Source of the DNA: an uncultured Bdellovibrionales bacterium
GTDB taxonomy: Bacteria; Bdellovibrionota_C; UBA2361; SZUA-149; DAOLCO01
Length of the DNA: 64,000 nt
Direction of reading: 5' to 3'
Assembly: GCA_964612555.1 (NCBI GenBank)
Contig: CAZTBW010000004.1
Coordinates: 123,713-187,712 of the forward strand
The notes beneath the pieces are model-generated. The model saw nothing but the letters and a program-made list of their open reading frames with translations, had not been told where the DNA came from and made no database searches. A program made the position numbers and the translations under genes. Below are positions 17,032 to 17,256 of the stretch, in pieces. Positions within the stretch are counted from its first letter, which is position 1; the number at the start of each line of letters is the position of its first letter.

Positions 17032-17256
17032 TTATGCCGCCTTTTGCATTACATTTAACGCAACGGATTTAAAATCACGTTCCATTAACGTCTTACGACC
17101 ATCTTTTTTTGCGTTTTGTGCTGCTTCATCAATAAGATTCTTTATCGCCTGAGAAAGCACCATTGGAACATCAGCAGAAGTACTCAGCCCTGCGGTATTC
17201 TTCACGTAACTCTTAAGCTTTGACACAACAACCAGATTTTCAGCTGACTCACTCAT
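17032..17256 (-). CDS. histone-fold DNA-binding protein (bacterial histone candidate)
   Basis: 74 aa; LVVVSKLKSYVK...STSADVPMVLSQAIKNLIDEAAQNAKKDGRKTLMERD matches the archaeal HMfB-type single histone fold (RVS..A...L.....ia.eA...A.haGRKTi...D); from memory resembles Bdellovibrio Bd0055-type histone. Confidence 0.6.
   Translation of the reverse strand: MSESAENLVVVSKLKSYVKNTAGLSTSADVPMVLSQAIKNLIDEAAQNAKKDGRKTLMERDFKSVALNVMQKAA

Follow-up and report, generated by a model that had tools for sequence, protein, structure and literature searches.

A gene for a probable HBb-type bacterial histone in an uncultured Bdellovibrionota lineage

We describe a short gene in a 64,000-nucleotide stretch of DNA from an uncultured Bdellovibrionales bacterium (contig CAZTBW010000004.1, positions 123,713 to 187,712); the whole stretch is called the window below. 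At positions 17032 to 17256 the minus strand encodes exactly the 74-residue protein that a sequence-only reading had proposed to be a bacterial histone, MSESAENLVVVSKLKSYVKNTAGLSTSADVPMVLSQAIKNLIDEAAQNAKKDGRKTLMERDFKSVALNVMQKAA. The protein has an isoelectric point (pI) of 9.4, a mass of ~8.0 kDa and a net charge of about +2.5, and both its charge and its pI are like those of HBb (Bd0055), the histone of Bdellovibrio bacteriovorus. The product is very probably a singlet bacterial histone in the HBb/Bd0055 class; most likely it would act as a dimer that binds DNA without sequence specificity and serve as a general nucleoid-associated protein. The gene and the predicted parts of its product are as follows.

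17032 to 17256, minus strand: open reading frame (ORF) of 74 amino acids, singlet histone, probably of HBb/Bd0055 type (from the ORF list, PDB matches, BLASTP, AlphaFold2, Foldseek and the ratio of nonsynonymous to synonymous substitution, dN/dS)
Residues 9-22: predicted helix alpha-1
Residues 23-29: predicted loop L1
Residues 30-51: predicted helix alpha-2
Residues 52-58: predicted loop L2, with R54-K55-T56
Residues 59 onward: predicted helix alpha-3, with the clamp partner D61
Residues 63-74: clade-specific tail

An ORF this short might simply be a chance open frame in intergenic DNA from which no protein is made, and its length of just 74 codons and the absence of Pfam or NCBIfam annotation above threshold would fit that idea. 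The conservation pattern rules it out, leaving it practically no chance. When the histone codons are compared with those of three relatives, dN/dS is 0.035-0.13 while the proportion of synonymous differences (pS) is 0.57-0.70, near saturation; the ORF is under strong purifying selection. A word-indexed search found 22 close homologues, 49-88% identical, and an exhaustive profile search found 1,078 clusters at 50% identity with E <= 1e-3 (500 with E <= 1e-10). The start codon is backed by the alignment of the relatives and by a conserved Shine-Dalgarno sequence, and the fold is predicted with confidence. In a scan of GTDB species representatives, at least 200 histone loci were confirmed. Within the window itself, tblastn for a second histone gene matched this ORF alone.

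The family also contains longer architectures. The best-scoring members are not singlets: 26 of the first 27 hits of the exhaustive search are tandem doublets, 98-274 residues long, in which two stretches are matched. An N-terminal extension of 30-130 residues ahead of one HBb-like domain is seen in many others, and several singlet relatives have C-terminal tails that contain Cys (for example, ...CSM).

The class of the protein can be read from comparison with all PDB chains, made with the single sequence and then with a profile of the 22-sequence family. With the single sequence, HBb/Bd0055 is the top match (8cmp, E 6.5e-10; 8fvx, 9.8e-10), followed by the Leptospira perolatii histone HLp (9qt0, 7.8e-5) and by Methanococcus HmvA and Thermococcus HTkC, both at ~3e-3. 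The profile gives the same leading order with much stronger E values: HBb 7.7e-21, HLp 1.5e-9, HTkC 5.4e-9 and HmvA 1e-6, with the histone-fold protein 1f1e and the Asgard histone HHoB lower down (E about 5e-4). The E value for HBb is thus 11 orders of magnitude better than that for HLp, a face-to-face (FtF) histone. BLASTP against HBb residues 1-59 aligns 28 identical residues of 58 (48%) with no gap. The likeness to Bd0055 that the sequence-only reading had proposed is therefore borne out, and the Leptospira histone, which it had named as a second comparison, comes directly after HBb.

A three-helix model agrees with these matches. AlphaFold2, run on the family alignment for the monomer, predicts helices at 9-22, 30-51 and 59-73 with a mean predicted local distance difference test score (pLDDT) of 81; in short-long-short order and joined by two loops, these make up a histone fold. 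Searched against the PDB with Foldseek, the model has HBb chains as its top five matches (template modelling score, TM, 0.78-0.81 normalised to target; root-mean-square deviation 1.6-1.8 A). The top eight are HBb, HLp and HTkC chains, each with probability 1.00, and all 50 PDB matches listed are histone-fold proteins (HBb, HLp, HTkC, H2B, NF-Y, CENP-T/W, HMfA/B and TAFs). The proposal of a histone fold holds, as does the by-eye alignment to archaeal HMfB: its register is correct, and the quoted segment carries GRKTxxxxD.

Particular residues tie the protein to the HBb class. Seventeen positions are invariant in the 22 relatives: L8, V10, V11, S12, K13, L14, K15, T26, V30, A45, A49, G53, R54, K55, T56, M58 and D61. 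These include the bacterial S-K motif (S12-K13) and K15 in alpha-1, where K19 is also at least 90% conserved, and all four key residues of the L2 motif RxTxxxxD (R54-K55-T56-L-M-E-R-D61). Of these features, RKT, the S-K motif and the RD clamp have been described for Bd0055 (PMC10627809). Loop L1 (N20-TAGLSTS-A28) is free of arginine, so there is no sprocket arginine. Since the alignment with HBb is ungapped from alpha-1 through L2, alpha-2 (22 residues in the model) has the shortened length found in HBb. Simulations of HBb singled out ten top DNA-contact residues: T8, S9, K10, K12, K16, N22, S24, K52, T53 and R57 (PMC11317129). Eight of them are identical here, with S9, K10, K12, K16, S24, K52, T53 and R57 corresponding to S12, K13, K15, K19, S27, K55, T56 and R60; the other two differ, V11 standing for T8 and S25 for N22.

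Three kinds of such histones have been published: nucleosomal ones (HMfB), FtF alpha-3 histones, which are tetrameric (HLp, HTkC), and alpha-3 histones of the 'bacterial dimer' kind (HBb) (PMC11390915, PMC12701072). The 'bacterial dimer' class is defined by sequence clustering (Schwab et al. 2024, PMC11390915), and the protein goes with HBb in this respect. It shares with HBb of B. bacteriovorus HD100 (PDB 8CMP, 8FVX, 8FW7, 9EZZ, 9F0E) the lengths of alpha-1, L1, alpha-2 and L2, the D-G-R-K-T loop and clamp, the alpha-1 lysines, the absence of an L1 sprocket arginine and of a tetramerisation histidine, the singlet architecture with no extra domain, and the host phylum.

The other two kinds are more distant. 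HLp (PDB 9QT0-2) and HTkC of T. kodakarensis (9F2C) share the short histone fold, including the clamp and an RxT loop, at 32-35% identity and a Foldseek TM of 0.80-0.86 (normalised to target). However, FtF histones form stable tetramers through R49 and N53 in HLp numbering (R48/N52 in the numbering of the FtF hidden Markov model; PMC11390915) and wrap ~60 bp (PMC12701072), whereas the aligned residues here are N48 and D52, and the K of RKT, absent from FtF histones, is kept as K55. Archaeal HMfB, HMfA and HTkA (PF00808; PDB 1A7W, 1B67, 5T5K) share the helix-loop-helix-loop-helix plan, GRKT(I/V/L)xxxD and the clamp, but alpha-2 of our protein is about one turn shorter (the class criterion is 4-5 residues), and it has neither the sprocket arginine nor an H49-type tetramer interface. 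HMfB is seen by fold only (TM 0.55-0.58, 19-24% identity), similarity in sequence to histones of this kind being marginal (HHoB with the profile, as above). Archaeal nucleosomal histones wrap DNA into hypernucleosomes, and HBb-type histones do not (PMC10627809); Bd0055 needed the changes S45F and A48H to bring DNA ends together or wrap DNA (PMC10627809), and the corresponding residues here are N48 and K51, with no archaeal tetramerisation histidine. Taken together, the top match to HBb, the ungapped alignment, the S-K motif, the alpha-1 lysines, the RKT loop, the RD clamp and the absence of tetramer residues place the protein in the HBb class.

If it works as this class would suggest, two copies would form a head-to-tail histone-fold handshake dimer, for which the tandem doublets of the same domain among the first exhaustive-search hits are indirect support. 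With no sequence specificity, this dimer would touch DNA at its phosphate backbone, across minor grooves. For this it would use the paired L1-L2 loops (T26 and S27 with K55, T56 and R60), L2 being held by the R54-D61 clamp and reinforced by D52, together with the first turn of alpha-1 (S12, K13, K15, K19). Because the residues of archaeal nucleosomal and Leptospira/FtF tetramers are absent, the dimer would be expected to bend or coat DNA rather than wrap it, in the role of a general nucleoid-associated protein. In B. bacteriovorus, no protein of the nucleoid fraction is more abundant than HBb (PMC10627809). A functional analogue of the proposed activity is HU/IHF, also a small basic dimer with non-specific minor-groove binding and bending, and a likeness of this sort has been drawn for HBb by Hu et al. 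(PMC11317129); the fold of HU/IHF is unrelated and there is no homology.

Not every prokaryotic histone-fold protein need organise a genome, as Schwab et al. point out (PMC11390915), and one relative of our protein has a weak match to DUF1931, a type proposed to have a non-chromatin role. The protein might accordingly be a specific regulator or a protein-protein adaptor. We consider this very improbable: eight of the ten HBb DNA-contact residues, the RKT loop and the alpha-1 lysines are kept, features reported as missing from the DUF1931 class (PMC11390915); HBb, which at 48% identity is the nearest relative to have been characterised, tops the nucleoid fraction of its host (PMC10627809); and a conserved partner gene is absent outside the close clade.

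Several points do weigh against the assignment to a DNA-binding HBb-type dimer. Dimerisation, DNA binding, abundance and a nucleoid role are inferred here, while the gene and its selection, the fold, the kinship with HBb and the conserved motifs are shown. The in vivo binding mode of HBb is itself disputed, between an end-on filament (PMC10627809) and HU/IHF-like bending (PMC11317129). Of the domain models, PF00808, which the sequence-only reading had named as a check, is indeed the best Pfam match, but at 18.5 bits (E 0.0025) it stays below the gathering cut-off of 21.4, and the NCBIfam model archaea_histone is also below threshold (16.4 against 50). The low PF00808 score reflects the bias of that model to archaeal and eukaryotic sequences; 17 of the 22 relatives match it weakly as well (E 2.5e-4 to 0.01). 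Because of these sub-threshold scores, source databases list the 74-residue protein with no name and no Pfam domain, while some relatives are labelled 'histone H3/H4' by JGI.

The remaining point against concerns the C terminus. Our protein extends 12 residues beyond the HBb-aligned core (past F62), whereas HBb extends about 5; counted from the end of RKTxxxxD there are 13 residues, against a family mode of 2 and a typical range of 1-9. The model draws the tail as part of a continuous helix 59-73, weakly predicted, with low pLDDT falling from ~75 to 61. By definition, however, alpha-3 of the HBb class is truncated to 3-4 residues, a single turn (Schwab et al. 2024, PMC11390915), and so the quaternary behaviour of a protein with the long modelled helix could differ from that of HBb.

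It follows that the protein might be an HBb-like histone whose tail forms a full-length amphipathic alpha-3 and leads to a different assembly, in which dimers touch one another, oligomers form on DNA or DNA is wrapped; in that case we would be dealing with a structural variant and not a plain HBb orthologue. Apart from the modelled helix and the unusual length, this idea draws on the hydrophobic residues of the tail, which as read from the sequence are amphipathically spaced at i, i+3, i+4, i+7, i+8 and i+11 (F62, V65, A66, V69, M70, A73), and on the pattern FK[ST]..-x4-QKAA, common to the four closest relatives. Against it stand the low pLDDT of the tail and the absence of the residues of a four-helix bundle or FtF tetramer (N48, K51, D52 and S64 are found instead). 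Tails across the wider family are also variable, often rich in Ser, Thr, Ala or Pro and mostly low-complexity or proline-containing, and are probably disordered. We think such a variant unlikely, and grant the same small chance to the view that, in the close clade, an HBb-type core has retained a full-length amphipathic alpha-3 or acquired one anew. The plain HBb-type histone remains the preferred reading.

The signals around the histone gene are listed below, in order from the stop codon outward.

16991 to 17015, minus strand: intrinsic-terminator-like hairpin, picked up by a terminator scan, between the histone and tatC stop codons, with an 11-bp stem (6 G-C pairs) and a 3-nt loop, followed by TTGTTGTTT
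17266 to 17272, minus strand: Shine-Dalgarno sequence GAAGGAT, 10 nt upstream of the ATG (AAAGGAT or GAAGGAT in relatives; AAGGAT invariant in five distinct relatives)
17321 to 17350, minus strand: candidate core promoter, with a -35-like TTGCTA (17350-17345), an 18-nt spacer and a -10-like TAGTAT (17326-17321)
17353 to 17474: 122-bp segment bounded by perfect 13-bp inverted arms (17353-17365 and 17462-17474), directly upstream of the candidate core promoter
17493 to 17511, minus strand: hairpin AGACCCCCT-c-AGGGGGTCT, an inverted repeat read directly from the sequence, then CTTTTGGGGG

Only three blocks upstream of the histone are conserved in relatives: GCTAG(A/T/C)AT (17348-17341), TA(G/T)TAT (17326-17321) and the Shine-Dalgarno sequence. 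The first two suggest a promoter, of sigma-70 type or with an extended -10, since the same conserved bases can alternatively be read as an extended -10, TGcTAGAAT (17349-17341). A scan for promoter consensus sequences did not list the TTGCTA/TAGTAT pair, which has 8 of 12 matches. In the relatives, too, a G+C hairpin directly follows the histone stop, but it differs from one to the next and is not homologous. The hairpin at 17493-17511 is likely the terminator of the M42 peptidase gene that lies upstream, separating that gene from the histone unit. With this hairpin on one side and its own terminator hairpin on the other, the histone looks like a single-gene unit, and it would be transcribed as such, from its own conserved promoter and with a strong ribosome-binding site. 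RNAalifold, applied to five relatives, gave no consensus pairs that would indicate conserved RNA structure in the 5' untranslated region. A G+C-rich stretch, GTGGCGCCGCGTGGCACACGTATGGGCGCCCTGCG on the minus strand, occupies 17512-17565 between the M42 stop and its hairpin, in surroundings of ~41% G+C; it is absent from the shorter spacers of the relatives.

The 122-bp segment deserves a closer look, as the sequence-only reading had described a 12-bp inverted repeat bracketing the promoter of the histone gene. The repeat is real, with arms of 13 bp that match perfectly, TGTAAGCGTTCAA (17353-17365) and TTGAACGCTTACA (17462-17474), and 96 nt between them, but they do not bracket the core promoter (17350-17321), as both are on its upstream side. 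An internal 9-bp hairpin is found at 17431-17453. When the whole window is shuffled, perfect inverted repeats of this size (13 bp or more, with at most 150 nt between arms) turn up at a mean of 0.2 seeds, so the repeat is unlikely to be due to chance.

Such a repeat could be a regulatory device of the histone gene, either a pair of half-sites for a looping operator (109 bp centre to centre, ~10.4 helical turns) or a cis-acting RNA stem. In favour are its perfect match, which is not expected by chance, the position of the proximal arm, which stops 2 nt short of the -35-like hexamer on the upstream side, and the good folding of the segment on both strands (z = -4.2 and -4.5), though the folding is a consequence of the repeat itself. 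However, the spacer between the M42 peptidase gene and the histone is 344 bp here and only 110-156 bp in relatives with 82-88% identical histones, where the repeat is absent. Removing 17353-17474 leaves the junction GTGAATATA|ATTTGCTAGAAT, which resembles GTAAATATCTATTTGCTAGCAT in one of them, L084. The short spacers and the L084-like junction suggest that the segment is a strain-specific insertion next to the core promoter, on its upstream side. At 84 other histone loci the upstream DNA shows no excess of long spaced inverted repeats over shuffled sequence, and Rfam yields no match here, even with E values up to 1 admitted. The window has some seven further perfect long-range repeats, unrelated in sequence and mostly intergenic, which points to a feature of the genome at large and not of the histone gene. 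A regulatory role for this repeat is thus unlikely, and as a conserved regulatory element we reject it, given its absence from relatives and its failure to recur at other histone loci. The window contains no second copy of the segment, and the exact pair of arms was not found in JGI metagenome contigs.

By the same limits (at least 13 bp, at most 150 nt between arms), perfect inverted repeats fall at eight loci of the window: 7172-7295, 7194-7242, 13697-13723, 17353-17474, 23919-24057, 24164-24229, 27753-27841 and 35137-35300. Their arms reach 17, 25 and 28 bp, and their sequences are mutually unrelated. Four of the eight overlap no ORF of at least 90 residues, and two more overlap only a 130-residue ORF (23840-24232) that is possibly spurious. 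The pair with 28-bp arms, 27753-27841, lies just upstream of a gene for a 678-residue flagellin (25671-27707, minus strand). These repeats may belong to a genome-wide class of intergenic hairpins or of elements like miniature inverted-repeat transposable elements.

The histone gene is flanked by the following genes.

15833 to 16231: TatA/B, preceding tatC
16243 to 16986, opposite strand to the histone and convergent with it: TatC (PF00902, E 7e-71)
17601 to 18683, minus strand, as the histone: M42 aminopeptidase, the upstream gene

The convergent arrangement with tatC had been noticed from the sequence, and the neighbour is a true TatC. The order M42, histone, then tatC, tatA and a response regulator on the opposite strand is kept only in the close clade, whose histones are 82-88% identical; in this neighbourhood the locus differs from that of HBb. 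The Oligoflexia metagenome-assembled genome (MAG) locus L002 keeps only the side with PPAT, a 515-residue ORF and M42, and has no tatC match. Among 80 GTDB loci, tatC was beside the histone in none, and M42 was matched only in L002. A functional link between the histone and Tat export is therefore rejected as lineage-specific synteny. Since neither the inverted repeat nor tatC has a conserved link to the histone gene in relatives, both are incidental to it.

The response-regulator gene at 15020-15787 (plus strand) encodes 255 residues with a sub-threshold receiver domain (PF00072, 29.7 against 30.2 bits) and is 78-89% conserved beside the tat genes in close relatives. In the distant loci L005, L007 and L014, homologues with 26-37% identity share the strand of the histone gene and follow it at ~0.7-0.9 kb; in L011 one lies ~1.9 kb away on the opposite strand. 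This proximity could be a coincidence, receiver domains being common. On the other side, the 515-residue ORF (18690-20237, minus strand) has no Pfam match but is conserved at 34-49% between PPAT and M42 in relatives; it begins with a hydrophobic leader, followed by an acidic N-terminal region rich in Glu and Arg.

The nearest named relatives of the window's proteins are one Oligoflexia MAG and further Bdellovibrionota MAGs, by which the host is placed in an uncultured Oligoflexia/Bdellovibrionota lineage. FlhA is 60% identical to its Oligoflexia counterpart; at L002 the histone is 75% identical, the best in the scan of GTDB representatives, and the M42 peptidase 80%, in the shared order PPAT, 515-residue ORF, M42, histone. 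Homologues of Bd0055 are reported for 67% of Bdellovibrionota genomes (PMC10627809), and a histone is thus expected in this host, whose phylum is the one with the most frequent occurrence of the HBb type. That frequency, together with ~1,078 clusters and at least 200 GTDB loci, weakens the argument from rarity in the sequence-only reading.

Other features of the window bear on its organism and annotation. An FlhA/SctV-type export gate protein is encoded at 9019-10971 (minus strand), and the flagellin mentioned above is unusually long; with these two genes the organism is probably motile. A full-length RNase P RNA of bacterial class A (245.5 bits) occupies 14526-14871 on the minus strand, so several ORFs listed there (14355-14894) are spurious. 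Of ten large ORFs scanned, four have no NCBIfam match at E <= 1e-10 (31510-33465, 42174-44540, 54208-55953 and 46509-47870), and the same holds for 24225-25580.

For the family, the locus adds an unannotated HBb-type member from a divergent uncultured Oligoflexia-like lineage. It leaves existing knowledge unchanged: the structure and biochemistry of the class have been described since 2023, and two-thirds of Bdellovibrionota genomes are reported to carry such a histone. Genes of this kind escape a standard scan with Pfam or NCBIfam but are readily picked up when the solved HBb structures serve as the reference. The sole departure from the family, and the sole feature that could repay experiments, is the C-terminal extension. 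If it does form a full-length alpha-3, the protein would stand midway between nucleosomal histones and the bacterial ones with truncated alpha-3, possibly capable of dimer-dimer association on DNA, a trait that HBb lacks.

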